From a virus, in the IMG/VR virus record IMGVR_UViG_3300031952_000004, positions 45,586-109,585 of that record: a DNA stretch of 64,000 nt, one strand, 5' to 3'. Position numbers and translations under genes: made by a program. Shown here piece by piece: positions 10,853 to 55,179 of this stretch. Below the pieces are notes generated by a model, which was given only the letters and a program-made list of their open reading frames with translations, made no database searches and was not told the DNA's origin. Positions within the stretch are counted from its first letter, which is position 1. Each line of letters opens with the position of its first letter.

Positions 10853-11581
10853 ATGCAATTTAAATTTTGCTCAGAATGTAAAACGAGAAAATCTATAAAT
10901 CAATTTCATAAATGTATTAGAGATGGAATATCTAGTTGGTGTAAAGAATGTTATAAAGAATATTATATATTGCATAAAGAAGAAATAAAGAAATATAAAG
11001 TGAAACATTATCAAATTCATAAAGAAGAAATTAGAGAAAAACACAAAGAATATCAAAGGATTCATATAAAAGAAATTAAACAAAAGCACCACGACTATTG
11101 GTTAATAAACAAAAAACAATTAAGACAAAAACAAATAAATTACAACATAACTAATCGAGATAAAATTAAGCAGTATCAACATAATTGGTATATAAAACAT
11201 AAAGAAAAAATAATAAAACGACAAATCGATAATGAGAAAAGCAAATATAAAACAGATATTTGCTTTAGAATTTTAAAAAATTTAAGAGTCCGAATAAGAT
11301 TGGCATTAAAAGGCAATCTCAAATCCGAAATTACTATGAAGTTATTGGGTTGTAGTATTAAATTTTTTAGAAATTATTATGAATCTAAATTTACCAAAGG
11401 TATGTCTTGGACAAAAGTAATGAATGGAGAAATCCACTGCGACCATATCAAACCCTGTGCTTCGTTTGATTTATCTAAACCAAGCGAGCAAAAGAAATGT
11501 TTTAATTACACTAATCTTCAACCTCTATGGGCAATTGATAATTTAAGAAAAAATAAGAAGGAATTTATATGCAGCCAATAA
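10853..11581 (+). CDS. HNH homing endonuclease
   Basis: CSEC..CKEC, Lys/Tyr-rich helical repeats, IHCDHIKPCASFDL..CFNYTNLQPLWAIDNLRK; paralogue of 47535-48080. Confidence 0.85.
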   Translation: MQFKFCSECKTRKSINQFHKCIRDGISSWCKECYKEYYILHKEEIKKYKVKHYQIHKEEIREKHKEYQRIHIKEIKQKHHDYWLINKKQLRQKQINYNITNRDKIKQYQHNWYIKHKEKIIKRQIDNEKSKYKTDICFRILKNLRVRIRLALKGNLKSEITMKLLGCSIKFFRNYYESKFTKGMSWTKVMNGEIHCDHIKPCASFDLSKPSEQKKCFNYTNLQPLWAIDNLRKNKKEFICSQ

Positions 11582-39488: not shown

Positions 39489-40020
39489 TTTCTATTTTTT
39501 CTATAAAATAATATCCATCTCTTATTAAAGTTACATAAGATAATTTACAAACTTCTCTTGCGTCAAAAGGAGCAGTAATTATATGAATTCCATTCTTTGA
39601 TAAATGAGATTCTTTGATAATACCATTGAAGTTTCCAATTATAGTATGAACTTCCTCAATTTCAGTTCTAGTATTTGCGTCTACATCAAACATAAAATTA
39701 TTTTCTGCTTTACATTCGGGTTGTAATAATGCTGTTTTCCAAAGAGAATCAATACAGCCATCAAATTGCGAGGTTTCTATAAGTTTATGTAACATCCAGA
39801 TTCTTGCTTTTTTAGTATCTCTTGCATTAACTGTATGATGAATTGTCCAAATTCCACCTAATTTTTTACATTTTTCTCTTAATAAAAATAAATCTAAATT
39901 ATAATCATTAATAATTACTCTAATACATTCGTTAGTTAAATTGGGATTATTTTTTCTTCTTCTAAAAGCTAATAATAAATGTACCATATTTCTTATAGGT
40001 CTATCTTCATGATTTGCCAT
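39481..40020 (-). CDS. Phage protein with AEP-like motifs
   Basis: FMFDVD and SKNGIHII resemble archaeo-eukaryotic primase motifs I and II. Confidence 0.45.
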   Translation of the reverse strand: MANHEDRPIRNMVHLLLAFRRRKNNPNLTNECIRVIINDYNLDLFLLREKCKKLGGIWTIHHTVNARDTKKARIWMLHKLIETSQFDGCIDSLWKTALLQPECKAENNFMFDVDANTRTEIEEVHTIIGNFNGIIKESHLSKNGIHIITAPFDAREVCKLSYVTLIRDGYYFIEKIENV

Positions 40021-40416
40021 TTATTCGACCTCTTTTTGTAAAATTTCCGTAATTTTAGGGTCTATTTTTTGATTATTTAAATAATTCTTAAAACTTTCCT
40101 TAAAAGAAGTCATTTCGGTACGTATACTTTTTTCGGTACTATCCGAAATAACTTCAAACGATGTTTCATACTTAAATGTCGCAAATTTTGTATCATAATT
40201 ACGACATAAAGGAAGAAATTCTCTATAACTTTCAAAATCAAGGATTTTGACTTTAACTTTGGTATTTGGTGGTAATTTATCTAAATAAGTTTGACATTGA
40301 GCTAAATTTAAGGCATTTTTGCCCTGTTTTAGCCCCGTAGAGCTACTTTTTTTAGTTAAAGCATCATTCTTACTACCTTCAATTTGATTGTTTTTATCTA
40401 AGTCGTTGTCTGACAT
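40021..40416 (-). CDS. Probable C-terminal fragment of split SbcD/Mre11 nuclease
   Basis: KVKVKI..F..Y...SFKNYL resembles the gp47/SbcD capping region; GGAG RBS lies inside HNH 3' end. Confidence 0.55.
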   Translation of the reverse strand: MSDNDLDKNNQIEGSKNDALTKKSSSTGLKQGKNALNLAQCQTYLDKLPPNTKVKVKILDFESYREFLPLCRNYDTKFATFKYETSFEVISDSTEKSIRTEMTSFKESFKNYLNNQKIDPKITEILQKEVE

Positions 40417-40895
40417 ATAGTTAAGTTCTCCCATTTGGGTTTTATATATTTCAAACCTATTTCTATCATTTCCTCATATGTTAAAATATTACTTTTCATC
40501 GTATTACAAATTCTGCAAGCCCATACAATATTATCAATAGTATATCCTAATTTTGGATTTTTCTTATCAACTTGAAGACTATATTTTCCTTTTATTTCTT
40601 TAAATATTTTTTCAGAAATTCCACAATATGTACATTTATGGGGTTCATTCCAAAATTTTCTAAATTCTTTTAAAGTACAATATTTTTTGTTTAATTTTTC
40701 TGACCTTAATCTTAATGCACCCCATCTCAGTTTAGCATAATCTGGAATTGTTTTTGTTCTTCGTATTAAATTTAATTTCCTATAAATAATTCTATGACAA
40801 TCATTAGAACAATATATTTTTTTAGATATACTTGTTAAAAATTCTTTTTTACAAATTGGACAAATTTTGGATTGCAATTCTTTTTTAATATACAT
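40398..40895 (-). CDS. HNH endonuclease inserted in SbcD
   Basis: CPIC..YCS..C, CTYCG..VDKKNP..GYTIDNIVWACRICN..K. Confidence 0.85.
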   Translation of the reverse strand: MYIKKELQSKICPICKKEFLTSISKKIYCSNDCHRIIYRKLNLIRRTKTIPDYAKLRWGALRLRSEKLNKKYCTLKEFRKFWNEPHKCTYCGISEKIFKEIKGKYSLQVDKKNPKLGYTIDNIVWACRICNTMKSNILTYEEMIEIGLKYIKPKWENLTICQTTT

Positions 40896-40896
40896 A

Positions 40897-41514
40897 TTAT
40901 TCCTTACTAAGTTCAATCTGTACCATAGGGATAGGAGTTTTAAGAGGTATGAAATCAACCTTTTCTTGAGAAGTATTATAATTAGTAATCAAAGCCACTA
41001 ATTTATATTTATCTTTGGCTTCATCAAAATTAACAAAACGACAACTTCCTAAATGTATTATATTAGGGTCAAAAGAATGTAAATGTCCCAAAAAAATAAG
41101 CAAATAATAATTTTTTAAATCTTTTATAGATATTTTAGCACCATAATTTTTAGAAGATTCTTTTACAGAAAAATGTCCACAATAAAGATGATTTTCATCT
41201 CTAATTTCTTTTACTATAGTAACGTTAGGAGAAAGTATTCCATAAATATCTACAGAAGATAACTCTAATGTTTCACTTTCATGACTTTGTGCAGCCAGCA
41301 AAATAATTTTTCTATTTCCTAATTTCCGAATAAACCTCCCTAAACAATTAAGTTCGGAAGCAGTTGGTTTATTGTTATCAAAATTATCGCCTAAACTAAT
41401 TATATGAGTAACAGAATATTTATTACATAATTCTACAATTTCTTGTAAAATTATTTCACATTCTTTTAAATTATTTTGGTTTATGTGTAAATCCCCAAAA
41501 ATTAAATAAGTCAT
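40897..41514 (-). CDS. SbcD/Mre11 (T4 gp47-like) nuclease, phosphoesterase domain only
   Basis: GDLH, LGDNFD, SHE, GH, GHLH, HLGS...FDE; upstream of SbcC. Confidence 0.82.
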   Translation of the reverse strand: MTYLIFGDLHINQNNLKECEIILQEIVELCNKYSVTHIISLGDNFDNNKPTASELNCLGRFIRKLGNRKIILLAAQSHESETLELSSVDIYGILSPNVTIVKEIRDENHLYCGHFSVKESSKNYGAKISIKDLKNYYLLIFLGHLHSFDPNIIHLGSCRFVNFDEAKDKYKLVALITNYNTSQEKVDFIPLKTPIPMVQIELSKE

Positions 41515-42243
41515 CTAGTTCTCCATAATATAAGTAAAATAAACATACCAATAGTCTCTGCCAGTATTGGTTTTATTATGACATTTATGACATAAGGTAA
41601 TTAAATTATCTTCCTTACAATTTTTTTTATTATAATCAATATGATGAATTGAAAGTTTTTTCTTTAAATCTTTTAATTCTTGTGTTTGCGTTTTGTTACA
41701 TAACTGACATTTGTGGCTGTCTCTTTTAAGAATCTTAGTTTTTAATTTTTCATTCCATTGTTGATTATATGGTTCTTTGCCATTTCCATCAATATACATT
41801 GGATTTTTCTTTCCTAATTTATGGAAGCGTTCATTACAAGACTTACAACGTTTAACTTTGTAGGATTTGGCTCTATTTCCACAATCAATACAGATAGATT
41901 TACCGCCAGTCCATGTAGGCGAATTAATCCCCATTAATAATTTTAATATTGGAGAATCATTATAACATTGTTTATTACAATAATTATGTTGATTATGTTT
42001 TAATTGATATGGATAAATTAATATAGATTTTTTACAAGTAAAACATTTAACTCTTATCAATCCTTTATAACTCGGATTTGATTTCCCACTTAATGTTTTT
42101 ACATAACACTTTTGACATCTTTTTGATTTATAAATAGATTTTGCATTTCCGCATTTGCAGAAATATTTTTTCATTGTTCTACCATCTTTATAAGATGGAT
42201 TATTTTTCCCTACATTAATATGATAACCCTTACGAGTATTCAT
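41515..42243 (-). CDS. Zn-finger HNH homing endonuclease
   Basis: CxxC repeats; ILKRDSHKCQLC..IHHIDYNK..NLITLCHKCH..RDYWYVYFTYIMEN. Confidence 0.88.
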   Translation of the reverse strand: MNTRKGYHINVGKNNPSYKDGRTMKKYFCKCGNAKSIYKSKRCQKCYVKTLSGKSNPSYKGLIRVKCFTCKKSILIYPYQLKHNQHNYCNKQCYNDSPILKLLMGINSPTWTGGKSICIDCGNRAKSYKVKRCKSCNERFHKLGKKNPMYIDGNGKEPYNQQWNEKLKTKILKRDSHKCQLCNKTQTQELKDLKKKLSIHHIDYNKKNCKEDNLITLCHKCHNKTNTGRDYWYVYFTYIMEN

Positions 42244-42585
42244 CTAAGCGTTTCCTATTTGTTCTACTTCTTTATTAATAATTTTATTTTTTATTTTTTC
42301 ACGTTTATCTTTTTGAATTTGCGTCTTAGGATTTCTGTTCCAAATTTTTCTTGAATTTGAATAAATATCACATGCTTGATTACATTTAGTACAAATATAA
42401 TAACAAGTACCTATTATCATATTCTTAGGATTATCTCCAAAAAAATCGGGAGACATACTAATTTTTACTTTAGCATTACAACATAAAGATTTTAAATTAT
42501 TTTTCTTTTTCATTATCGAATCCTCCAAATATGTCTTTAAAAAAATCAGGAATATTCTTATCTTGACATTTAGCACATAATCCAT
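42244..42585 (-). CDS. Small Zn-ribbon protein (true start probably at MKKKNN)
   Basis: SLCCNA..CTKCNQAC. Confidence 0.55.
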   Translation of the reverse strand: MDYVLNVKIRIFLIFLKTYLEDSIMKKKNNLKSLCCNAKVKISMSPDFFGDNPKNMIIGTCYYICTKCNQACDIYSNSRKIWNRNPKTQIQKDKREKIKNKIINKEVEQIGNA

Positions 42586-42644
42586 TTTTAAGTGCGGTAA
42601 AATTATTACATTTTTTACAACAATCTAGATAAAAGACATCTTCG

Positions 42645-43220
42645 TTATAAGGCATCTTTTCCTTTTTCGTCGTTTTCTATAGTTTTTTTGAAATAAACAT
42701 TAGCAGATTTATGATAAATAATAATTCCTTCGGGATTCGCAAATCTAGTTGAAGATGAAGCATAACTTCCTGTATTTTTTAAATTAGTCAAAACGTTTTC
42801 TATTTGAAAAGTATCAAATATTCCTTCATAAAGAATAGGTACGACATAACAACATTCAGGACAGTATTCTTGTTTATCTTTTAGAGGAATATCTTTATCT
42901 TTTATCCACCTACTAACATTAAATAAAGAAAATCTTTTTTCTTGTAAATTATACCCTCTTTGTATTTCCTTGCCCCAAAACTCTCCATAATGATAACCTT
43001 TACCTAATTTTAATAATTCTTCTTTATTATCCATTACCCAATGCCAAAATCCATGATTATCGTTATGGTCGTCTAACCATTTATTTTTACTTCCTGCATA
43101 AATATTATTATTTTCATCAATAAAGATAAGTCCGCATGTGCCATCAATTTTTTCTGTAATAATAATATCTCTACTTAATCTTGGTATTTTAGGGAATCCT
43201 CTAAATTCTGGTAATATCAT
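42645..43220 (-). CDS. RNA ligase-family nucleotidyltransferase
   Basis: TEKIDGT (motif I), GEFWG, FSLFNV, EGIII, YFKK. Confidence 0.8.
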   Translation of the reverse strand: MILPEFRGFPKIPRLSRDIIITEKIDGTCGLIFIDENNNIYAGSKNKWLDDHNDNHGFWHWVMDNKEELLKLGKGYHYGEFWGKEIQRGYNLQEKRFSLFNVSRWIKDKDIPLKDKQEYCPECCYVVPILYEGIFDTFQIENVLTNLKNTGSYASSSTRFANPEGIIIYHKSANVYFKKTIENDEKGKDAL

Positions 43221-45380: not shown

Positions 45381-46269
45381 GAATATAATCTAATATCTTA
45401 CCTACTCCTAATTCATTAATACAATAATTATAAAGTTGAGGATGAGTTTTAGCCATGCATTGAAATTTATTAGGTTCCTTTTCTAAATGAGTTCCAAACA
45501 TACAAAACATACATCCAGTTCTTAATTGTCCTTTATCATAAATAGTTGCATATTTTAGATTGTTCTTTTTAATATATGCCCAAACATCTTCTTCTAACCA
45601 AACTGATAAAGGTCTTGATTGAATCTTACCTTCAAAAGAATTACATCCATATTGTAAATAAGTAATTTCTCTCAATCTACTTTCATTTGCCATTGTACCG
45701 ACATAGGGATGCAATCCTGTTTTCTTAGTATAATTTTTGAATGGAAGTTTTTTCATTACATCACAGCATTGGTCGGAAATTTTAAAAGGAGCCTTAATTA
45801 AAAATCTCCATTTTTCTGGTACTTTCCAACTTCCAGATGCTTTTTTTCCATCTCCTCTTATACCTGTTAAATAGAGGTTCCTTATTATTTTATTTCCTTT
45901 TGTAGGATTCTGTAAAGTTGAAATCATTGAAGCAATTTTTTTACTAGTAACTGGATAACCATAGGTATCTAAAACTTGTTTAAAAGTCATTTCGGGTCTA
46001 ATAATTTCTACATTTTCAGTTTCTCGGACAAATTGTATCACTTCCGGCCATTCTAGACCTGTATTTACGAAGACTGCTTTGACATGAGGATATATTGACC
46101 TTACTAAATGTAAAAGAACTGTACTGTCTTTTCCTCCAGAAAAAGAGATACATACATCTCCTTCTAATTTTTCATAAAATTCTCTTATTCTTTTATTAGT
46201 AAACTTAATTTTTGCCTCTAAAGGTAATGATTGTCTTTGTTTAAGTTCCCAAATCTTTACTTTAGGCAT
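45358..46269 (-). CDS. PAPS reductase-family (PP-loop) protein
   Basis: SFSGGKDS, NTGLE, CC..MKK, ES.LR, RTGCMFC. Confidence 0.88.
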   Translation of the reverse strand: MPKVKIWELKQRQSLPLEAKIKFTNKRIREFYEKLEGDVCISFSGGKDSTVLLHLVRSIYPHVKAVFVNTGLEWPEVIQFVRETENVEIIRPEMTFKQVLDTYGYPVTSKKIASMISTLQNPTKGNKIIRNLYLTGIRGDGKKASGSWKVPEKWRFLIKAPFKISDQCCDVMKKLPFKNYTKKTGLHPYVGTMANESRLREITYLQYGCNSFEGKIQSRPLSVWLEEDVWAYIKKNNLKYATIYDKGQLRTGCMFCMFGTHLEKEPNKFQCMAKTHPQLYNYCINELGVGKILDYIHVPYKEV

Positions 46270-47012
46270 TAATATCCTCCTAATTTTTTATCAAAAATAC
46301 CTTCTTCTATTTCTTTCTTAAAACGAACATCCAAATCGGTAACATAAATTGGAGGAAATCTATCTTTTCCTTTTTTATTATTAATATGCCCCACTTTAAA
46401 TGGACTTTTGGTTTTAGATTGCATTTTTAATAATTCTTTCCATAAATCGGGAAAATTCTTATACAAACCTCTTAATGATGTCATTGGTTGTAAAGGACAG
46501 CACCAGCACGATGCACTACTCATACACTTATAAAGATTCTCAAAATTGAATCCTTTATCTTTACAATAATCTAAACAATCCTGTTCAGTCATTCTCCATT
46601 CTATTAAAGGAAGTATTACTGTTTTATCATCTGCATATCTTTTTGCTCTATATTCTTCACCTTTTGTAAGTCCAAGATAATTAACAAAAGGTTTTTTGTC
46701 TTTTAAATATTTGTGAATTGCAGTTTTTTTCAATCCTGTACACCAACGAATATTGAAACGAGGAAATCCCAATCCAATTCCCCTTTTATTTGGTTTTTCA
46801 TACATATACCATTCAAATGATTTTTCTGGTTTAAGCCAAACAATAGGTCTTTTAATATATTCTTCAACTTTTTTAACAGTAGTATAAATAGCAGGGAATT
46901 CCCATCCTGTATCAAAGAACAAAATTTCATCTATTTGCTTTTTTTCTTCAAGTAATCTTATAAGCATAGCAGTAGAATCTTTCCCACCTGAATAACTAAC
47001 TATATAGTGCAT
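46269..47012 (-). CDS. PAPS reductase-family (PP-loop) protein
   Basis: SYSGGKDS, DTGWEFP, RWCT.LK, SCWCCP. Confidence 0.88.
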   Translation of the reverse strand: MHYIVSYSGGKDSTAMLIRLLEEKKQIDEILFFDTGWEFPAIYTTVKKVEEYIKRPIVWLKPEKSFEWYMYEKPNKRGIGLGFPRFNIRWCTGLKKTAIHKYLKDKKPFVNYLGLTKGEEYRAKRYADDKTVILPLIEWRMTEQDCLDYCKDKGFNFENLYKCMSSASCWCCPLQPMTSLRGLYKNFPDLWKELLKMQSKTKSPFKVGHINNKKGKDRFPPIYVTDLDVRFKKEIEEGIFDKKLGGY

Positions 47013-47036
47013 TTCTTTTTCCTTTTTAAGAGAGAG

Positions 47037-47056
47037 AAGGAAGTTAAAACTTCCTT
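47037..47056 (-). terminator. Hairpin with pyrimidine tail
   Basis: Minus strand aaggaagtt-tt-aacttcctt then ctctctctt. Confidence 0.45.
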
Positions 47057-47326
47057 TTAGTTAATTCGTTCTATTGTTTTACCATTATCATTAAGAAGAT
47101 AAACATTATTGACATCAACTACAATAACTTGAGCCAAAATTTGTTCAGCTTTAAACATATAAATCTTCTTAACTGAATCATTATCAATAATTATACTTCT
47201 CATTAACATAAATTGTTTATTCAAATCAGCATCTTGTGCATTTTTTACAGTAGTTTCGATAACCTCTACTGTCTCAATTTTATCAAAAAACTTCCACCCA
47301 CAATTCATTTGAACTTTCATTATCAT
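47057..47326 (-). CDS. Small beta protein
   Basis: Ends VYLLNDNGKTIERI, a C-terminal motif seen in small phage proteins. Confidence 0.6.
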   Translation of the reverse strand: MIMKVQMNCGWKFFDKIETVEVIETTVKNAQDADLNKQFMLMRSIIIDNDSVKKIYMFKAEQILAQVIVVDVNNVYLLNDNGKTIERIN

Positions 47327-47535
47327 TTTTCTTCCTCCTTTTTATCTGCCTTTCTATCTATCTTCCTTCTCTCTTTTTTAGGTTTAATTTCTTTTATTAA
47401 TGATAAATCCCATTTTAATGCTTCAAAAATATGTTCAACCTTTGAAATTATACTTCTTTCTATCATTTTAGACCACGCAATCTTGGATTTATCTAATAAA
47501 TCTACAGTATTTTCATCAAAAGCAATTGGAATCAT
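47323..47535 (-). CDS. C-terminal fragment of split family B DNA polymerase
   Basis: IAF...IAWSKMIE..I..KVEHIFEALKW matches the PolB C-terminal IDW..MIE..I...E.I..A.GW pattern. Confidence 0.72.
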   Translation of the reverse strand: MIPIAFDENTVDLLDKSKIAWSKMIERSIISKVEHIFEALKWDLSLIKEIKPKKERRKIDRKADKKEEEK

Positions 47536-48080
47536 TATTTTGCTCCTTTTTTTAAATTATCAACTGCCCACAGAGGTTGTAAGTTAGTATAATGAAAACA
47601 TTTGCGTTGTTCTGACTTTTTTCGCAAATCAAATGAAGCACAGGGTTTAATATGGTCTATGTGCCACAATCCATAGTTAGACCACGACATATTTTTTAAA
47701 AACTGTGATTCTAAATGTTGTTTTAATTCTTTTAAAGAACAACCAATTAATTTCAATATGGAAGTAGATTTATGAATTTTTTTTAATACTTTTCGCAATC
47801 TTTGTCTAAGACAAATTCGTATTCTAAAATTAATATCTCTATGGTACCTATTATATTTGTAAACATTATCTTGTTCGATGGTTTCTTTTTTATGGTCTTG
47901 ATAATACTTTTTTCTTTGTAAACTTATTTTTTCTTTATTTAGTCGGTCATACTCTTTTTTATATAAAGCAATTTCTTTTTTATGAATTTTATTATAAATT
48001 TTTCGAATTAAAAGAATTTTTTTCTTATGTAATTGATAATATTCTTTTGCGTATTGTTTCCAATCTTCTTTAGTCCACAT
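47535..48080 (-). CDS. HNH endonuclease inserted in polB
   Basis: WHIDHIKPCASFDL..CFHYTNLQPLWAVDNLKKG; start at MWTKEDW overlaps the pol stop. Confidence 0.88.
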   Translation of the reverse strand: MWTKEDWKQYAKEYYQLHKKKILLIRKIYNKIHKKEIALYKKEYDRLNKEKISLQRKKYYQDHKKETIEQDNVYKYNRYHRDINFRIRICLRQRLRKVLKKIHKSTSILKLIGCSLKELKQHLESQFLKNMSWSNYGLWHIDHIKPCASFDLRKKSEQRKCFHYTNLQPLWAVDNLKKGAK

Positions 48081-51000
48081 AATAAATCCACCAATAATTA
48101 TCACCCAATTGCTTATCAAATTTTCCAAATATTTTTTTGCTATTATTTTTTGCTTGAATATGAATTGGTAATTTTCTAATAAAAGTTGTTCCTTTAGCAT
48201 TTGTTACTATAGTTTTGTACTCTCCATCTTGTTTTGTTAATCTTGCAGGAAATCCAATATCTTGCAGGGGTAATGTTTTAATCTTTTCTTTTTCAGAATT
48301 AATCCATTTTACTATTTCTTCTTGTGGTTCTTCATTCATAATCTTTTCAATTAAAATCGTTTGAAATTCTTTAATGAATTTTGAACTATCTTTTCTTTTG
48401 GCTTCTATACCTTTGATTTCTTCTTTTAATTTTCCATTTAATTTTCTTAAATATCCTTTATAATGGCACATAGCTACGATTAAAATTTTTTCAAATCTAC
48501 CTTCACATTCAAATTTAATATCAATTCTTTCTCTATTATATCTTTCTTTAGCCCATTGTTGTATTAATTGATTAAACAATTCTGTAGGATTTTCTTTTGA
48601 TTCTATCATAATACCATCAGTATCCAAATAAATAACATTGATTCCTTTTTCTTTTATTTTATCTTCTGTATAATGAAGTAAATCTCTTGCAATTGAAGTA
48701 ATTGCTGAAGCAATATGAACATTATAAAGTCTAAAAATCTTTAATCCACATACTCCAAAAAGAGAATTAACAACCGCTTTGATTGCATCATATTTTATTT
48801 GTAAATCTTTACCTTCTTCAGATTCTGGATTTGCTTGTTCTAATTCTTTTTTAATAGTATCTTTTTTATTTAATAATTTTCTTGCAATAATTGGTAATAA
48901 AGTATTTTGATTTTGTGTCATGTAAATAGAATATTTAAAAGTATTTGTTTCTCTATCAGTAATATCTATTTTCTGACTATGTTTATCTTCTGTTAAATTT
49001 GAAACATCTAAACATAAATTATTAATAATAGATGGATAAGTTCCCGAAATATCCATTTTCCAAATATTATTTTTAAAAAAACCTAAATCTGCTCTACGAT
49101 AAGCTCCTTCAAATTCAATTTCATCAGAAATTTCTTGTCCATAATGTTTAGAGGGTAAAATGATTCCTTTTTGTTTAGCTTCTCGAAGTAGAATCATATC
49201 TATCATTTTAGAATTCCAACAAACATCCGACCACTCGCACATACTCATTCTTCTAAGTTCATCGTAATATTCTACAATTTCTAATTTCTTATCTAAATCT
49301 ATCATCCTTCTTACATCGTTTATATTTTTTTCTTTAATTTCATCAGCCAATCTACTAAAATCTACCTTTTTATAAGACTGTTCTTTTAATTCTTTTTGAC
49401 AAACTGCATCTAAAGCATAAGAAGATTCTGTACGGTAAATTTTCTTATACATTTCTAAATAATCCATAACACTTATACCAGCAGGAATAAGATTTGGTTC
49501 TACTTCTTGTTTACCCCCCAAATATCTTGCTTGAGCAATTGGACTTAACATTTCTGCCAATTCACATCCAAATAATTTTTTATATCGGGCACAAAGATAA
49601 CGCCAATCGAATTCAATAAAATTCCAACCGCAATTATGTGTAAGCAAATTATTTGCTATAAATAAATGATGTTTGTCCAGAGTAATATCTATTAACTTTA
49701 AATTTTTTATATTTTTAATTTGTTTTATTGAATTAAAAAAATATGTGTTTATATATTTATTCAATTCATCTAATTTTGTTATTTGATACTTGGATAGTTT
49801 GTTAGTTTTTATTATATCGATAATATAATGCACAAATTCTCTTGTAATTGTTTGATTTGAACAAAAAAGTTTCATTTTATCTTTATAGGAAAGTTTAACA
49901 TTCCATTCTTCGATAAGTTTTAATAATAAATTTTTAATGGGAATGGTATCTATATGATTAACTGTATGTTTTAAAAATAACTTCTTTTTTGGATGTTTTA
50001 AAAATAAACGATAATTCTTAGAAGAACTATAAATTCTTAAAGTATAACATTTTTGTTTTGATTTTTTACCCGAATATCCATTATCTTTTTTATTCGGGAT
50101 TCCGATTCCCCACAAAACCCAAGACATCCAATCAATCAAAACTTCATTAGTATTGCTAAATGATAAACTATTTCCTGTATAAGTGCCATCTGCATCTATC
50201 AACCCACTAATAATATTAGTTTGTTGATTTGTATTTAATCCATAAAGATAAATACTTAAATTTTTATACAATATATCTATACTTTTTTTCCAATCATTAG
50301 CTTTTAAAGAATTTTTGCTATATAGATGATAACAATTATTATACTTATGAAGATACATGGCTATTCCATTTCTATTGAGTATTTTTTTAACTATACCCAT
50401 CATTTCTTCATTGTCATCTCTTACTTCCAATCGATTCTGTTTACCTTTTGTACCATCTCCCAAATAATACCCCACAAACCAAAAATATTCATCTTCTTGT
50501 CCATAATAGGGTAAATAATTTATTGGGGTTAAAATAAAATCCTTTTTTGTTAATTCTTTTGCTTGTTTTATTGTTTTAAAATTATCATGTTTATAAACTA
50601 AATTATTAAGATTAGTAATTAAAAATGGATGATTTTTTGAAGATTTGATTGTATTTGTTCTTGTTTGTATTTCTAATCCTTCTTCTTGTTTCTTTGATAT
50701 TCTGATAATTTTTGCTTTTGTAAAATCATTATGGCGATTAATTGATAACACTTCCTCTTCTAATTCTATATCTTTTAAAATTTTAAAACCTTTATGGGTT
50801 TTAATTTTTGTATTTTCATCTAAACACAATAAATCAAATTGTTGCTCTTTTATCCATTTAACGAAGGCATCCAATAATTTTTTTTCTAATTCACTCCAAT
50901 CTTTAACAGCAATTCTAGGGTCTAAATAATCTTTTAAATAAAATGTTTTAATCTCTTCTGTATAAGAATTAGAACATGAAATACATGAAATCGGCTGTTC

Positions 51001-51354
51001 TGGATAAAGATAATTGGGTAATTCTTTAGTAAGAACTTCGATGTCTATGAAAGAATACTTTAAATCTGATTTACCAAAACTGACGATTTTATCTATAATA
51101 TATCGCTTTGTGAAAAGTATATCGGCTTCATAACTTCCTTCATCTCTACGATTCTTTACATCAGAAGGACGAGAACAAAGGACTTTATTAACTTTTTTAT
51201 TGTCTATTGTTTTAAAAATTCCAGTAGGCGAGACTTGATAGAAATAAGGAAAGAAAGTTTTATCCTTAAACAAAGAAAGAGTTTTTCCGATTCTATGCCA
51301 CACATAAATTTCTCTCCCCACATTAGCAATATTACAAACGTTAAAGTTTAACAT
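48070..51354 (-). CDS. polB: Family B DNA polymerase, intein-containing, C-terminally truncated
   Basis: Exo I DIE, Exo II GWNFIEFD, DISGTYPS, K..VNSLFG, YLDTDG, KGIE..R.D. Confidence 0.93.
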   Translation of the reverse strand: MLNFNVCNIANVGREIYVWHRIGKTLSLFKDKTFFPYFYQVSPTGIFKTIDNKKVNKVLCSRPSDVKNRRDEGSYEADILFTKRYIIDKIVSFGKSDLKYSFIDIEVLTKELPNYLYPEQPISCISCSNSYTEEIKTFYLKDYLDPRIAVKDWSELEKKLLDAFVKWIKEQQFDLLCLDENTKIKTHKGFKILKDIELEEEVLSINRHNDFTKAKIIRISKKQEEGLEIQTRTNTIKSSKNHPFLITNLNNLVYKHDNFKTIKQAKELTKKDFILTPINYLPYYGQEDEYFWFVGYYLGDGTKGKQNRLEVRDDNEEMMGIVKKILNRNGIAMYLHKYNNCYHLYSKNSLKANDWKKSIDILYKNLSIYLYGLNTNQQTNIISGLIDADGTYTGNSLSFSNTNEVLIDWMSWVLWGIGIPNKKDNGYSGKKSKQKCYTLRIYSSSKNYRLFLKHPKKKLFLKHTVNHIDTIPIKNLLLKLIEEWNVKLSYKDKMKLFCSNQTITREFVHYIIDIIKTNKLSKYQITKLDELNKYINTYFFNSIKQIKNIKNLKLIDITLDKHHLFIANNLLTHNCGWNFIEFDWRYLCARYKKLFGCELAEMLSPIAQARYLGGKQEVEPNLIPAGISVMDYLEMYKKIYRTESSYALDAVCQKELKEQSYKKVDFSRLADEIKEKNINDVRRMIDLDKKLEIVEYYDELRRMSMCEWSDVCWNSKMIDMILLREAKQKGIILPSKHYGQEISDEIEFEGAYRRADLGFFKNNIWKMDISGTYPSIINNLCLDVSNLTEDKHSQKIDITDRETNTFKYSIYMTQNQNTLLPIIARKLLNKKDTIKKELEQANPESEEGKDLQIKYDAIKAVVNSLFGVCGLKIFRLYNVHIASAITSIARDLLHYTEDKIKEKGINVIYLDTDGIMIESKENPTELFNQLIQQWAKERYNRERIDIKFECEGRFEKILIVAMCHYKGYLRKLNGKLKEEIKGIEAKRKDSSKFIKEFQTILIEKIMNEEPQEEIVKWINSEKEKIKTLPLQDIGFPARLTKQDGEYKTIVTNAKGTTFIRKLPIHIQAKNNSKKIFGKFDKQLGDNYWWIYYVD
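49633..50826 (-). mobile_element. Intein (398 aa) with LAGLIDADG endonuclease in PolB exonuclease domain
   Basis: Starts CLDENTKI, SKNHP, VGYYLGDG, ISGLIDADG, ends FIANNLLTHN, followed by Cys. Confidence 0.93.
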
Positions 51355-52163: not shown

Positions 52164-52401
52164 TTAAAGCTATAATTATTAATATCCTTAAAAATGTAAT
52201 AATAATTAAACCTATTCCTATACCTATAATATTAGCTAACATATCTAACCAATCAAAACCTGTTCCATAAAAACGGTCATATATTTCTTTAAAAAATCCT
52301 AATAATAACGTTAATAATACTCCTAATGTTATACCTAAAAATAATCCTAATAAAATCATTAATGTTAAAGATACATAAAAATGCAATAATTTATCTTCCA
52401 T
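52159..52401 (-). CDS. Small membrane protein (VanZ/YfiM-like)
   Basis: DKLLHF..KEIYD...GF.WLD.LAN..G motif. Confidence 0.65.
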   Translation of the reverse strand: MEDKLLHFYVSLTLMILLGLFLGITLGVLLTLLLGFFKEIYDRFYGTGFDWLDMLANIIGIGIGLIIITFLRILIIIALI

Positions 52402-54995
52402 TAAATTTCTCCAAAATAACCCAAACCTGGTTTTTTTCTTGTTATAGGTTTAATTTCTTCCATTTCTTTTAAAAAATGAGTAATAGCAAATACTTGAAAT
52501 GCTTGAAATAAATGATTTGCTCCTTTACAACTATATAATATTTTTCCTTGTTTACTTCTTACTACTATAATATTATTTATTTGAGTATCTAATTTAATAT
52601 CTTCATAACATTGTATTTTCTTATTATAAAAAATATCCTTTAAACATTGAATAGACCAATCTACAACGTTTGCTTTTTTCATAACAGGATGTCCTTCTTT
52701 ATCTCTTATTTCTTTACCTTTATCATCTCTTTCAAAATCTATTTCTATATTAGAATTAAAATCTATAGGGATGATATTTTCTGGGTATTTTTTAATTAAA
52801 TGACTATATAAAGATTTCCCTACACCACTAGAATGGTCTAATCCTACAATATTAGGTTGTAAAATTTCTATTAAATATTCTATAAAATCCTTTTCTTCAT
52901 CTGGAGATAATTGAAAAGTAGTAATTCTATAAATATATTTATAAATTTTATTTGTTTTAGAAACGATAATATATTCCGAAGGTGCTCCGCCTTCTCCTAC
53001 GTCGAAATAAATTCCTAAACTTTCTGCATTATTTGGTTTTTCTATAATAATAATTTCTTTATATCTAAAATAACTATCTTTATTTACTTCGAATGATTTT
53101 ATAGGAATACCCATACCCTGCTTATCTAAAATATAAGTTTGTCTAATTCGTTGAATATCAAATACACTTTCTGCTCCTTCGATGACTTTTCCATCTATTT
53201 GAACTTGATATCCGATAGAATCCTTTCCTCCGAATTCCTTTATAGCGTCTGCTTCTTTTTTATCGTTCCAAGTCGGATTCACGTAAGAAGGAAGATTAAC
53301 AATTTTCTTTTTATTTTCTAAATTAAAAAATATTTCTCCCATTGGAGATGTTTTTGTAAAAGTTGTCATACCGCTATTATGAACAATAAATCCATTAGCT
53401 ATAAATGAATGACATTTAGTTTCTATATCATATACTTGTTGATTTTCTAAATATCCTTTACATTTTATCTGTTCTTTATTAAATATTGGTCTACGAATAT
53501 TAAGAATAGTTTTCCTATATCTTAATCCTTTTTTACAAGGCATTTCGTAAAAAGGTAACTCATATTTGTTAATCGAAAACTGCACAGATTTATTAGATTC
53601 TCTATAATTTTTACAATATTTTAGTTTTAATATATTTAAAATAGATTCTATTTTTTCAACTTTATTCCTATTAGTTTTATTTGATTGGGTAATCATCATG
53701 GAACCATCATTTCCCAAATATCCATCTCCAATAATAAATCCAATTAAAAAACCATACATACTATCTTTCAATATTTCTAATTCTTTATATGCTTGTAACA
53801 TTATATAATTGCTATTTCTATTAATATTAAATCTATATGGAGTTTTTTTGTTCCAACCATGTTTTTTTTGTTCTATTTTAGTATACATTATATTCAATTT
53901 TTGTAATAACCATTCAATAAAATCAACTTCATCTGATTGATGTATTATAAATTGATGTAAGATTTCTTCTTTTCCTTTTAATATATAATGAGAACCATCA
54001 CTTTCTATTAAACCTATTAATACCCCTCTTAAATAATAATCTATATTATGCAGATAATTAATACTTTTCATAAAATATTTATATCTCATACATCCATAGG
54101 CTTCTCGCCATTTATAAACTTTATCTCCTTCACTCAAACACCGAATTTTATGTTCGGGAGTTAACCACAGTTCATTTCGACTATCATCTATTTTAATAAC
54201 ATCTCGTATTCCAGAATCAAATAAATTTAGTACTTCAGTTTCTATTAGAGAATTTTGTTTTTCATCCCAAGCAATAATTAAATCGTTTTGTTGTATATCT
54301 TCTATATTTTTGGTAGAAAAATCAAACATTAATATTTTAGTTCCTTCTCTAATACAAAAACGATTTATACATCCTTTTTCAGATTGAGCCATTAACATTT
54401 TTCCAGAAACATCTTTAGTAAGATAACTAGATTCTTCCATATATTGTCTATCATAATGTTTACCGAAATATTGTCCACCTGGATTTTTACCTGTAATATT
54501 TTGATTAACACTTTCTAATAAAAGTCCACTATCAAAATTTAATTTATAGGTGGGACTCCGTAAGGGATGACAATTTAAAAATTTCATTATTTTATGATTC
54601 TCAAAACAATTAATTAATTTTTCAAAGATTTCTAATAAATGTAGTTTATCATAAGAAGAAATAACAGCCCATTTATAAACTTGATTAAAAGTACAAACTA
54701 AAACATCTATTGTAATAGCAATAATAGATTTGCCTGTAAGACGACCTCCTAATGCATAACTTTCTGCTAGATTATTTTTTACTTCCCAATTCTTTTCTTT
54801 AGATAATTTTTTATCTTCTAAAAATAAAGAATCATAACTCAACATAGGATATTGATATAATCTTATAAACCCAAATTTATTCTTATCAAAAACTCCTAGA
54901 GAATCAAAATCGTGAAATAAAATCTGAGATGCACTTATTGGATGAGTCATTACTTCAAAAAATATTAAATCTTCTTGTTTAATTTTTAGTATCAT
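52401..54995 (-). CDS. terL: Terminase large subunit, intein-containing
   Basis: RLYQ Q-motif, GGRLTGKS Walker A, YMEES Walker B, SGMT coupling motif, nuclease domain IYFDVG. Confidence 0.8.
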   Translation of the reverse strand: MILKIKQEDLIFFEVMTHPISASQILFHDFDSLGVFDKNKFGFIRLYQYPMLSYDSLFLEDKKLSKEKNWEVKNNLAESYALGGRLTGKSIIAITIDVLVCTFNQVYKWAVISSYDKLHLLEIFEKLINCFENHKIMKFLNCHPLRSPTYKLNFDSGLLLESVNQNITGKNPGGQYFGKHYDRQYMEESSYLTKDVSGKMLMAQSEKGCINRFCIREGTKILMFDFSTKNIEDIQQNDLIIAWDEKQNSLIETEVLNLFDSGIRDVIKIDDSRNELWLTPEHKIRCLSEGDKVYKWREAYGCMRYKYFMKSINYLHNIDYYLRGVLIGLIESDGSHYILKGKEEILHQFIIHQSDEVDFIEWLLQKLNIMYTKIEQKKHGWNKKTPYRFNINRNSNYIMLQAYKELEILKDSMYGFLIGFIIGDGYLGNDGSMMITQSNKTNRNKVEKIESILNILKLKYCKNYRESNKSVQFSINKYELPFYEMPCKKGLRYRKTILNIRRPIFNKEQIKCKGYLENQQVYDIETKCHSFIANGFIVHNSGMTTFTKTSPMGEIFFNLENKKKIVNLPSYVNPTWNDKKEADAIKEFGGKDSIGYQVQIDGKVIEGAESVFDIQRIRQTYILDKQGMGIPIKSFEVNKDSYFRYKEIIIIEKPNNAESLGIYFDVGEGGAPSEYIIVSKTNKIYKYIYRITTFQLSPDEEKDFIEYLIEILQPNIVGLDHSSGVGKSLYSHLIKKYPENIIPIDFNSNIEIDFERDDKGKEIRDKEGHPVMKKANVVDWSIQCLKDIFYNKKIQCYEDIKLDTQINNIIVVRSKQGKILYSCKGANHLFQAFQVFAITHFLKEMEEIKPITRKKPGLGYFGEI
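53376..54356 (-). mobile_element. Intein (327 aa) with LAGLIDADG endonuclease in TerL
   Basis: Starts CIREGTKI, LTPEHK, LIGLIESDG, LIGFIIGDG, ends VYDIET..FIANGFIVHN, followed by Ser. Confidence 0.93.
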
Positions 54996-54999
54996 AAAT

Positions 55000-55179
55000 C
55001 TAATTCTCCAAAAAATATTTAAAATACACAAACCAATAATCTCTATTATAATTAACTTTTGAATTACAACTATTACAAACTGTAATTAAATTATTTTCGT
55101 TACAATTTTGTTTATCATAATCGATGTGATGAATTAATATTCTTTTTTCTTGTTTAGTTAGATTTTTATTGGTAATCAT
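55000..55179 (-). pseudogene. HNH catalytic-domain-only remnant (59 aa, not in ORF track)
   Basis: IHHIDYDKQNCNENNLITVCNSCN..NRDYWFVYFKYFLEN; its last codons hold the GGAG RBS of terL. Confidence 0.75.

Follow-up and report, generated by a model that had tools for sequence, protein, structure and literature searches.

A family-B DNA polymerase gene in two cistrons around a putative HNH nuclease gene in an uncultured phage

The locus and the two polymerase pieces

We describe a DNA polymerase locus in IMG/VR virus record IMGVR_UViG_3300031952_000004, a record of 109,585 bp with direct terminal repeats, of which the 64,000-nucleotide part analysed here (positions 45,586 to 109,585) is called the window. 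On the minus strand, four open reading frames (ORFs) are read from the sequence in series, their ends overlapping: polB-N, which encodes a family-B DNA polymerase (PolB) lacking its C-terminal end; a gene for a putative HNH nuclease; a 70-aa ORF, here called the tail; and an 89-aa ORF (Table 1). The order of polB-N, HNH gene, and tail recurs in two other independent assemblies, IMGVR_UViG_3300035701_000011 (L001) and Ga0315288_10001632 (L080). Because of this recurrence, and because the tail matches PolB C-termini as set out below, the arrangement is not a matter of chance. An assembly artefact or a chimeric contig might be suspected in a metagenome-derived virus record, but is scarcely credible for an arrangement found in three independent assemblies from different samples and within different surrounding sequence.

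The junctions are tight. The translation of polB-N ends in ...GDNYWWIYYVD, with its TAA at 48072-48070, and the nuclease ATG (48080-48078; MWTKEDWK...) lies in a different frame, with an overlap of 11 nt. The longest ORF in the nuclease frame begins at 48200 and has its first 40 codons inside polB; 48080 is the likely start because an ATG occupies the equivalent position in a related contig, Ga0172362_10027473 (L081). The two tryptophan codons (WW) of polB-N form the GGTGG site that precedes this ATG. The nuclease ORF ends in ...AAAAAGGAGCAAAATAATG, and its TAA (47537-47535) shares one base with the ATG of the tail (47535-47533) in a TAATG junction, with AGGAG at 47547-47543; in L081, a GAGGA stands at the same distance from the tail start, in an unlike spacer. 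All three details, namely the polymerase stop, the overlapping HNH start, and a nuclease end that provides the ribosome-binding site and start codon of the tail, are as the original prediction, made from the sequence alone, had described them. The tail in turn runs into the 89-aa ORF through an ATGA overlap. A promoter and terminator scan of the region returned no excess of promoter-like sites, and the sole terminator-like hairpin follows the 89-aa ORF. The latter ORF is present in L080 (87 aa) and absent from L001 and L081, where a PAPS-reductase-like gene directly follows the tail; the extreme C-terminus of the tail changes type along with it (...KKEEEK versus ...KKKCII).

Table 1 Features of the split polymerase locus and further copies of the nuclease gene
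Feature	Position	Strand	Description
polB-N	48070..51354	-	1094 aa including intein; family-B DNA polymerase without its last ~60 residues
LAGLIDADG intein	49633..50826	-	Codons 177-574 of polB-N, in the Exo II motif
Putative HNH/His-Me-finger nuclease gene, free-standing	47535..48080	-	181 aa from ATG 48080
polB-C (tail)	47323..47535	-	70 aa; assigned from HMMER matches, alignments, dN/dS, and the P0126 model
89-aa ORF, unknown function	47057..47326	-	Joined to tail by ATGA
GGTGG, Shine-Dalgarno-like	48088..48092	-	7 nt upstream of nuclease ATG; read from sequence, presumed function
AGGAG, Shine-Dalgarno	47543..47547	-	Within last nuclease codons; 7-nt spacer to tail ATG
Shared cassette	47400..48300	-	From sliding identity and difference counts; ends approximate, varying by pair
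Terminator-like hairpin	47056-47037	-	Directly after 89-aa ORF
Further nuclease-family copy, window	11021-11557	+	
Further nuclease-family copies, same genome outside window	G000 39797-43125		

The large piece, polB-N, holds the exonuclease, palm, fingers, and most of the thumb of the polymerase and stops after the first strand of the thumb β-hairpin. Pfam DNA_pol_B (PF00136) matches it at 1e-38 (133.8 bits versus a cut-off of 23; 135.6 bits in a search of the phage's own genome) over profile positions 12-375 of 453 only. The match to phrog_262 covers positions 202-760 of 856, and because it stops at 760, the end of that profile is missing from polB-N. The motifs are intact in the translation: FIDIEV and GWNFIEFD (Exo I and Exo II), MDISGTYPS (A), KAVVNSLFG (B), and YLDTDG (C). 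The columns that match them are invariant in an alignment of 53 PolBs, and the N-terminus, MLNFNV..., is common to polB-N and its homologues. A tblastn search of GenBank phages with the C-terminal half of polB returned only matches of at most 25% identity (cyanophage, halovirus, and Campylobacter phage), and the gene therefore has no close cultured relative there.

An intein lies between QFDLL and CGWNF, just before GWNF, with matches to Pfam Intein_splicing and LAGLIDADG_3 and the residues C1 ... HN / C+1. Its borders were set in part from the break in a blastn comparison with the intein-less L001; it is likewise not present in L080, nor in L002 and L003, two relatives with an uninterrupted polB. 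The large terminase gene, terL (window 52401-55031, minus strand, 876 aa), also has a LAGLIDADG intein, at about residues 427-552, with matches to the same two Pfam families; the terL products of L001, L002, and L080 are shorter, at 537-559 aa, and have none. The genome therefore has inteins in both genes.

The rest of the thumb (its last strand, its helix, and the C-terminal tail) is found on the separate 70-aa ORF rather than on the same polypeptide. An exhaustive HMMER search of 1.84 billion representatives with this ORF gave 37 matches, of two kinds: long proteins, which are PolBs of 774-1148 aa with the match at the very C-terminus (e.g., 714-768 of 774 and 739-796 of 806), and short stand-alone ORFs of 54-147 aa. 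Relative to the uninterrupted polymerases of L002 (761 aa) and L003 (762 aa), polB-N aligns as far as ...GDxFYWIPV and the 70-aa ORF aligns with the last ~60 residues; between these two parts, intact homologues have a variable loop of 0 to ~90 residues. Two intact relatives with a short loop, P0126 and P0129, read ...YWLYIEGG-IPVAFD..., and ...YWWIYYVD of polB-N and MIPIAFDE... of the tail tile them with neither gap nor overlap. The two ORFs are thus collinear with, and tile, a gene that is contiguous in relatives. A 13-residue insert, TxVTNxKGTTYxRK, marks all of the split alleles and is also present in P0126 and P0129. The loss of a ~30-residue loop at the split was considered and dropped, as the short-loop intact P0126 and P0129 show nothing to be missing. 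The identification of the 70-aa ORF as the missing PolB C-terminus, made at first from its translation, is borne out by these matches and by the exact tiling: the closest intact homologues do not end naturally at WWIYY but run on through the variable loop into the segment that matches the tail.

Tail positions W685, I693, K696, F701, A703, and W706 are conserved in at least 90% of the 53 PolBs. The ratio of nonsynonymous to synonymous substitution rates (dN/dS) of the tail among the split alleles is 0.12-0.31, from a small number of codons and consistent in direction, and between the window and L081 dS is ~1.0 and dN 0.2. Judged from these substitution rates, the tail is under purifying selection.

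The position of the break in the fold was taken from an AlphaFold2 (AF2) model of P0126, for which the mean predicted local distance difference test score (pLDDT) is 91.7. Over its full length, this model can be superposed on RB69 gp43 (Z 31.9, root mean square deviation 4.0 Å, 686 residues aligned; model 2-722 on chain 1-899). It contains a strand (657-663), a three-residue turn (EGG), a second strand (667-671), a loop, and a helix (685-704), all with pLDDT values of 86-95. Because the modelled strand-turn-strand surrounds the break, the model places the latter at the tip of the thumb β-hairpin. In the same model, the tail spans strand two of the hairpin, the final long helix of the thumb, and the basic C-terminal end, and the two ORFs combined account for the complete fold seen in intact relatives. 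A search of the genome for a gp45-like or PCNA-like clamp found none, and it is speculation that the tail, like the C-terminus of gp43, carries a clamp-binding peptide.

Other forms of the polB C-terminus were also seen. P0004 (142 aa) has a P-loop-like N-terminus (GVPGCGKS) that continues in frame into the end of the polB loop and the tail (...KEVNKDVLCYDED...); it may reflect the insertion of another gene into polB of the long-loop type, or the gene call may be chimeric. The polB ORFs of other related viral contigs are much longer, at ~1090 aa in L091 (3489-6761), which has an insert in the thumb-proximal region, and ~1260 aa in L097 and L099 (3498-7280), which have a long extension after the tail. 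The extra sequence in these contigs may represent further inteins or fusions.

A probable two-chain polymerase and its alternatives

The reading that we prefer, and to which we assign a probability of roughly 0.8, is that the single PolB of this phage is made as two polypeptides, with the HNH gene between the cistrons and the cassette that contains it being mobile. A two-chain enzyme is the best reading because the tail is conserved and because the profile search of the genome recognised one PolB and found no PolA. The original prediction of a polymerase built from two chains stands in this form; translational coupling and assembly, which it had also proposed, we infer only. Co-translation, assembly, and activity of the two-chain enzyme, like cleavage by the nuclease, are predicted here from sequence.

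In such a scheme, one unspliced transcript could serve all three ORFs, because each has its own Shine-Dalgarno site. The large chain would also have to excise its LAGLIDADG intein. The 70-residue chain would supply the second strand of the thumb hairpin, the last long thumb helix, and the basic C-terminal end, and would dock on the large chain by strand complementation and helix packing to rebuild a normal thumb. The cassette would move by homing, co-converting ~100-250 bp of polB flank on either side.

The tail could instead be a dispensable relic, with polB-N working alone, or with the polymerase dead and the phage using host enzymes. The high variability of the thumb loop at the break in intact homologues (0-90 residues) would suit such a relic, but we consider it improbable on several grounds: (i) In each of the four split loci for which DNA was read, the tail has an intact ORF preceded by a Shine-Dalgarno site and beginning with ATG, and the stand-alone tail ORFs P0001 and P0002 accompany two further split alleles. 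(ii) The dN/dS values of the tail are as low as 0.12-0.31 at dS of up to ~1, and the residues of its helix are nearly invariant across the 53 PolBs. (iii) The catalytic motifs of polB-N are intact. (iv) The genome has neither another PolB nor a PolA.

A return to one chain, by a self-splicing intron that contains the nuclease ORF, by trans-splicing split inteins, or by ribosomal bypass, has precedents of its own: phage polymerase genes often have group I introns bearing HNH ORFs (e.g., PMC3428280), and 'fractured genes' that combine split inteins with a nuclease gene between the two halves have been described (PMC2677866). For the present locus it is very improbable. The nuclease ORF overlaps both cistrons and fills the whole gap, so that no non-coding intron core is left, and an Rfam search of 46800-48800 at E≤10 found neither Intron_gpI nor any other intron family, only sub-threshold snoRNA and miRNA noise. 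Both results agree with the original prediction that the gap has no room for a group I intron core. In L081, an allele without the HNH gene, 72 nt separate the pieces. No split-intein halves were found at the break, neither an N-intein of ~100 aa nor a C-intein of ~35 aa, because the pieces end and begin on extein-equivalent residues, exactly those that tile intact homologues. The class of group I intron-encoded HNH genes was considered for the nuclease and rejected, there being no ribozyme core and no non-coding sequence between the cistrons.

The nuclease gene, its cassette, and the origin of the split

The predicted nuclease has a helical N-terminal half and a C-terminal core, WHIDHIKPC...NLQPLW..DN.KKG. 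In an alignment of 31 family members, D142, H143, and N166 are invariant and H140 and N175 are conserved in at least 90%. These residues follow the β-β-α-metal pattern (D/H-H ... N ... N/H), and a strand-helix-strand-helix is predicted at residues 139-179. The phrog_1035 profile, 'endonuclease VII', matches 28 of the 31 members (best 1.4e-14), while Pfam, NCBIfam, and PDB sequence and profile searches with the nuclease gave nothing usable. The nearest structural clusters in the ESM Atlas include one with I-HmuI_NUMOD-like, which is a lead only. The assignment of the protein as a putative HNH/His-Me nuclease thus rests on the motif, the PHROG match, and the behaviour of the gene, and this behaviour is a stronger argument than the fold or profile evidence.

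The family occupies 68 loci in IMG/VR, often with several per genome, and this genome has five copies; the four further copies are 45-58% identical to the polB copy, and three of them lie within 3.4 kb. Across 70 distinct insertions, the downstream same-strand ORF starts -20 to +30 nt from the nuclease stop in 54, and it overlaps or abuts the stop in 21 of those 54. Members of the family also adjoin intact polB on both sides, overlapping their neighbours (L003 2373-3041 and 5313-5981; L001 2358-3020), and polB borders seem to be hot spots for the family. Elsewhere in the window, at 40021-41514 on the minus strand, a calcineurin-like phosphoesterase ORF (40897..41514) with weak Pfam Metallophos matches is followed by an overlapping NinG/HNH-like ORF (40398..40958) and then by a 137-aa ORF (40021..40434).

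The polB copy of the nuclease gene is part of a cassette that the window, L001, and L080 have in common at 96-100% identity, and that consists of the gene with ~220-250 bp of polB-N and ~100-135 bp of the tail. Between the window and L001, identity is ~75% across polB, rises to 96-100% from about 48300 to 47440, and then falls again. A codon-alignment scan gave the same picture: across the greater part of polB, identity is 58-92% among the three HNH-bearing alleles and 63-91% between these and the unsplit L002, whereas over the last ~75 codons before the break the values are 97-98% and 48-54%, respectively. Outside this segment, a split allele is no more distant from unsplit L002 than from another split allele. 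The HNH gene is not at this site in 13 or so other distinct related polB contigs in IMG/VR, all of them intact. The gene is thus patchily distributed, multicopy, and present as near-identical copies with co-converted flanks in diverged genomes. Because the tract of 96-100% identity lies within a background of ~75%, we conclude from the sequence comparison that the nuclease gene and its co-converted flanks were recently transferred horizontally between diverged phages.

The split also occurs where this cassette is absent. L081 has the same break (...WWIYYEE, then stop) and a tail ORF of 61 aa, with the 72-nt spacer and no HNH gene between them. The spacer contains a 28-codon ORF (461-571; MKNKFCKDCGE..., with a CxxC) that starts at the position of the HNH ATG and ends in ATGA on the tail start; a blastp-short search against all locus ORFs found no relative, and the ORF may be what is left of another endonuclease or may act as a coupling spacer. 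Protein searches yielded four further clusters of truncated polB-N ending in ...WIYYEE (P0040, P0041, P0043, and P0052) among ~100 mostly intact relatives. P0040 and the tail ORF P0001 come from contigs of identical length (38,731 bp), as do P0043 and the tail ORF P0002 (10,193 bp); paired by this identity of contig size, they are taken as further split alleles. P0001 and P0002, which were not found in IMG/VR, have differing N-terminal extensions, and their junctions are unlike that of the window. The 'EE'-type split alleles (P0040, P0041, P0043, P0052, and L081) are 60-89% identical and more diverse than the three near-identical HNH-bearing alleles. Because the split alleles are diverse, their junctions differ, and L081 has no HNH gene, the split clade would, as far as these sequences indicate, exceed the HNH cassette in both age and variety.

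Either the break was the work of a previous endonuclease that has since been lost or replaced, or the HNH gene settled in a pre-existing intercistronic gap. We put at close to an even chance the possibility that polB was already split in this lineage and that the HNH gene later homed into a short gap, in which case the two-chain enzyme holds and the cause of the split differs. The same break around a 72-nt spacer in L081, the greater diversity of the 'EE'-type alleles, the differing starts of tails P0001 and P0002, and the location of most nuclease-family members between genes, where genes for free-standing endonucleases commonly come to lie, all point that way, and the same ambiguity has been recorded for seg43(25) versus IC-UTS of phage 44RR (PMC2988022). 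On the other hand, the spacer of L081 could equally be the residue of a deleted nuclease gene; nothing seen here points to another mechanism for the original break, and L081 is the HNH-less split whose gap DNA was read. As to the original prediction of a polymerase gene split by an HNH insertion, the intronless, two-piece gene is upheld, and the HNH gene need not be the cause of the split, given a split without it in L081 and other junctions in other alleles.

The arrival of the cassette in an intact polB may nonetheless convert that gene. Because the stop codon, Shine-Dalgarno site, and start codon all lie within the co-converted flanks, we tentatively propose that an intact polB invaded by the homing HNH cassette could come to encode a two-chain polymerase in one recombination event, the split travelling with the selfish element. 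If so, a parasite gene would spread a subunit change of an essential enzyme across diverged phages, and the change would outlast loss of the parasite, as in L081.

Several observations weigh against parts of the interpretation given here: (i) CheckV puts the completeness of the record at 65% despite its terminal repeats, which leaves some room for a second polymerase elsewhere. (ii) The split without an HNH gene in L081 means that this HNH gene need not be the cause of the split. (iii) Pfam HNH matches only 4 of the 31 nuclease family members, at E≥0.057, and PDB sequence searches with the nuclease returned no nuclease. (iv) The AF2 model of the nuclease is confident in the helical N-terminal two-thirds only, with low confidence at the catalytic end. 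(v) A Foldseek search of the PDB with this model gave no match, and a VIA-wide search gave coiled-coil look-alikes only, the helical N-terminus dominating.

Comparison with known split genes

Genes in pieces are a known pattern; what appears to be new here is the split site, the very small second chain, the endonuclease family, the intein in the same gene, and the movement of the cassette. The intact alleles and the alleles split with and without an endonuclease gene form a comparative series in uncultured phages, which lets one ask whether homing endonucleases create or colonise splits and how co-conversion reshapes an essential gene. There is also a practical side, in that gene callers and pangenome pipelines will call the polymerase truncated and miss the 70-aa ORF.

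The mobE gene in Aeromonas phage Aeh1, offered originally as the precedent for this locus, lies inside nrdA, whose two polypeptides come together again as a working enzyme (Friedrich et al. 2007; PMC3045599; PMC2988022). In both cases, an intron-less HNH-type endonuclease gene is inside an essential gene that is expressed, or here predicted to be expressed, as two polypeptides; the host enzyme of mobE is ribonucleotide reductase, with function shown at the bench, whereas here it is a polymerase whose function we infer.

A closer precedent than mobE is gene 43 (PolB), which is split in the T4-related Aeromonas phages 25, 31, 44RR, and 65 and in Acinetobacter phage 133 (Petrov et al. 2006, 2010; PMC2988022, PMC3061061). 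In phage 25, 43A and 43B lie on either side of the endonuclease gene seg43(25), and phage 44RR has no more than a short untranslated spacer; the 43A and 43B proteins co-purify and show activity, and whether the endonuclease made or invaded the split is likewise unclear (PMC2988022). Both systems present a phage family-B replicative polymerase as two cistrons divided at a hypervariable surface element. The gene 43 split lies in the fingertip and gives two large subunits, whereas the split described here lies in the thumb β-hairpin and gives a micro-subunit of 60-70 residues. The endonuclease of gene 43 is seg-like and that of the present locus is assigned to the His-Me family; in addition, the large piece here also carries an intein, and the cassette is common to diverged genomes.

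The natural PolB splits listed in PMC3061061 are those in the fingertip of T4-like phages, in the palm in Methanothermobacter, and between the N-terminal part and the palm (N/palm) in Rhodothermus phage RM378, and an engineered split Pfu polymerase (fingers), ATGA-coupled, is fully active. Like the locus described here, the Methanothermobacter, RM378, and split Pfu enzymes indicate that family-B polymerases tolerate division into two chains, including coupled translation from an ATGA overlap; unlike it, they lack a nuclease gene between the pieces. No split on that list falls in the thumb, and the tip of the thumb hairpin would therefore be added as a natural split site beside fingers, palm, and N/palm. 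A fragment of 60-70 residues could be useful for split-polymerase engineering and for the study of thumb assembly.

Finally, in 'fractured genes' an essential gene is broken, a free-standing endonuclease gene lies between the pieces, and split-intein halves are ligated by trans-splicing (PMC2677866). The present polB resembles these in being in two parts with an endonuclease gene between them, and differs in having no intein halves at the break, its one intein being contiguous and far upstream.

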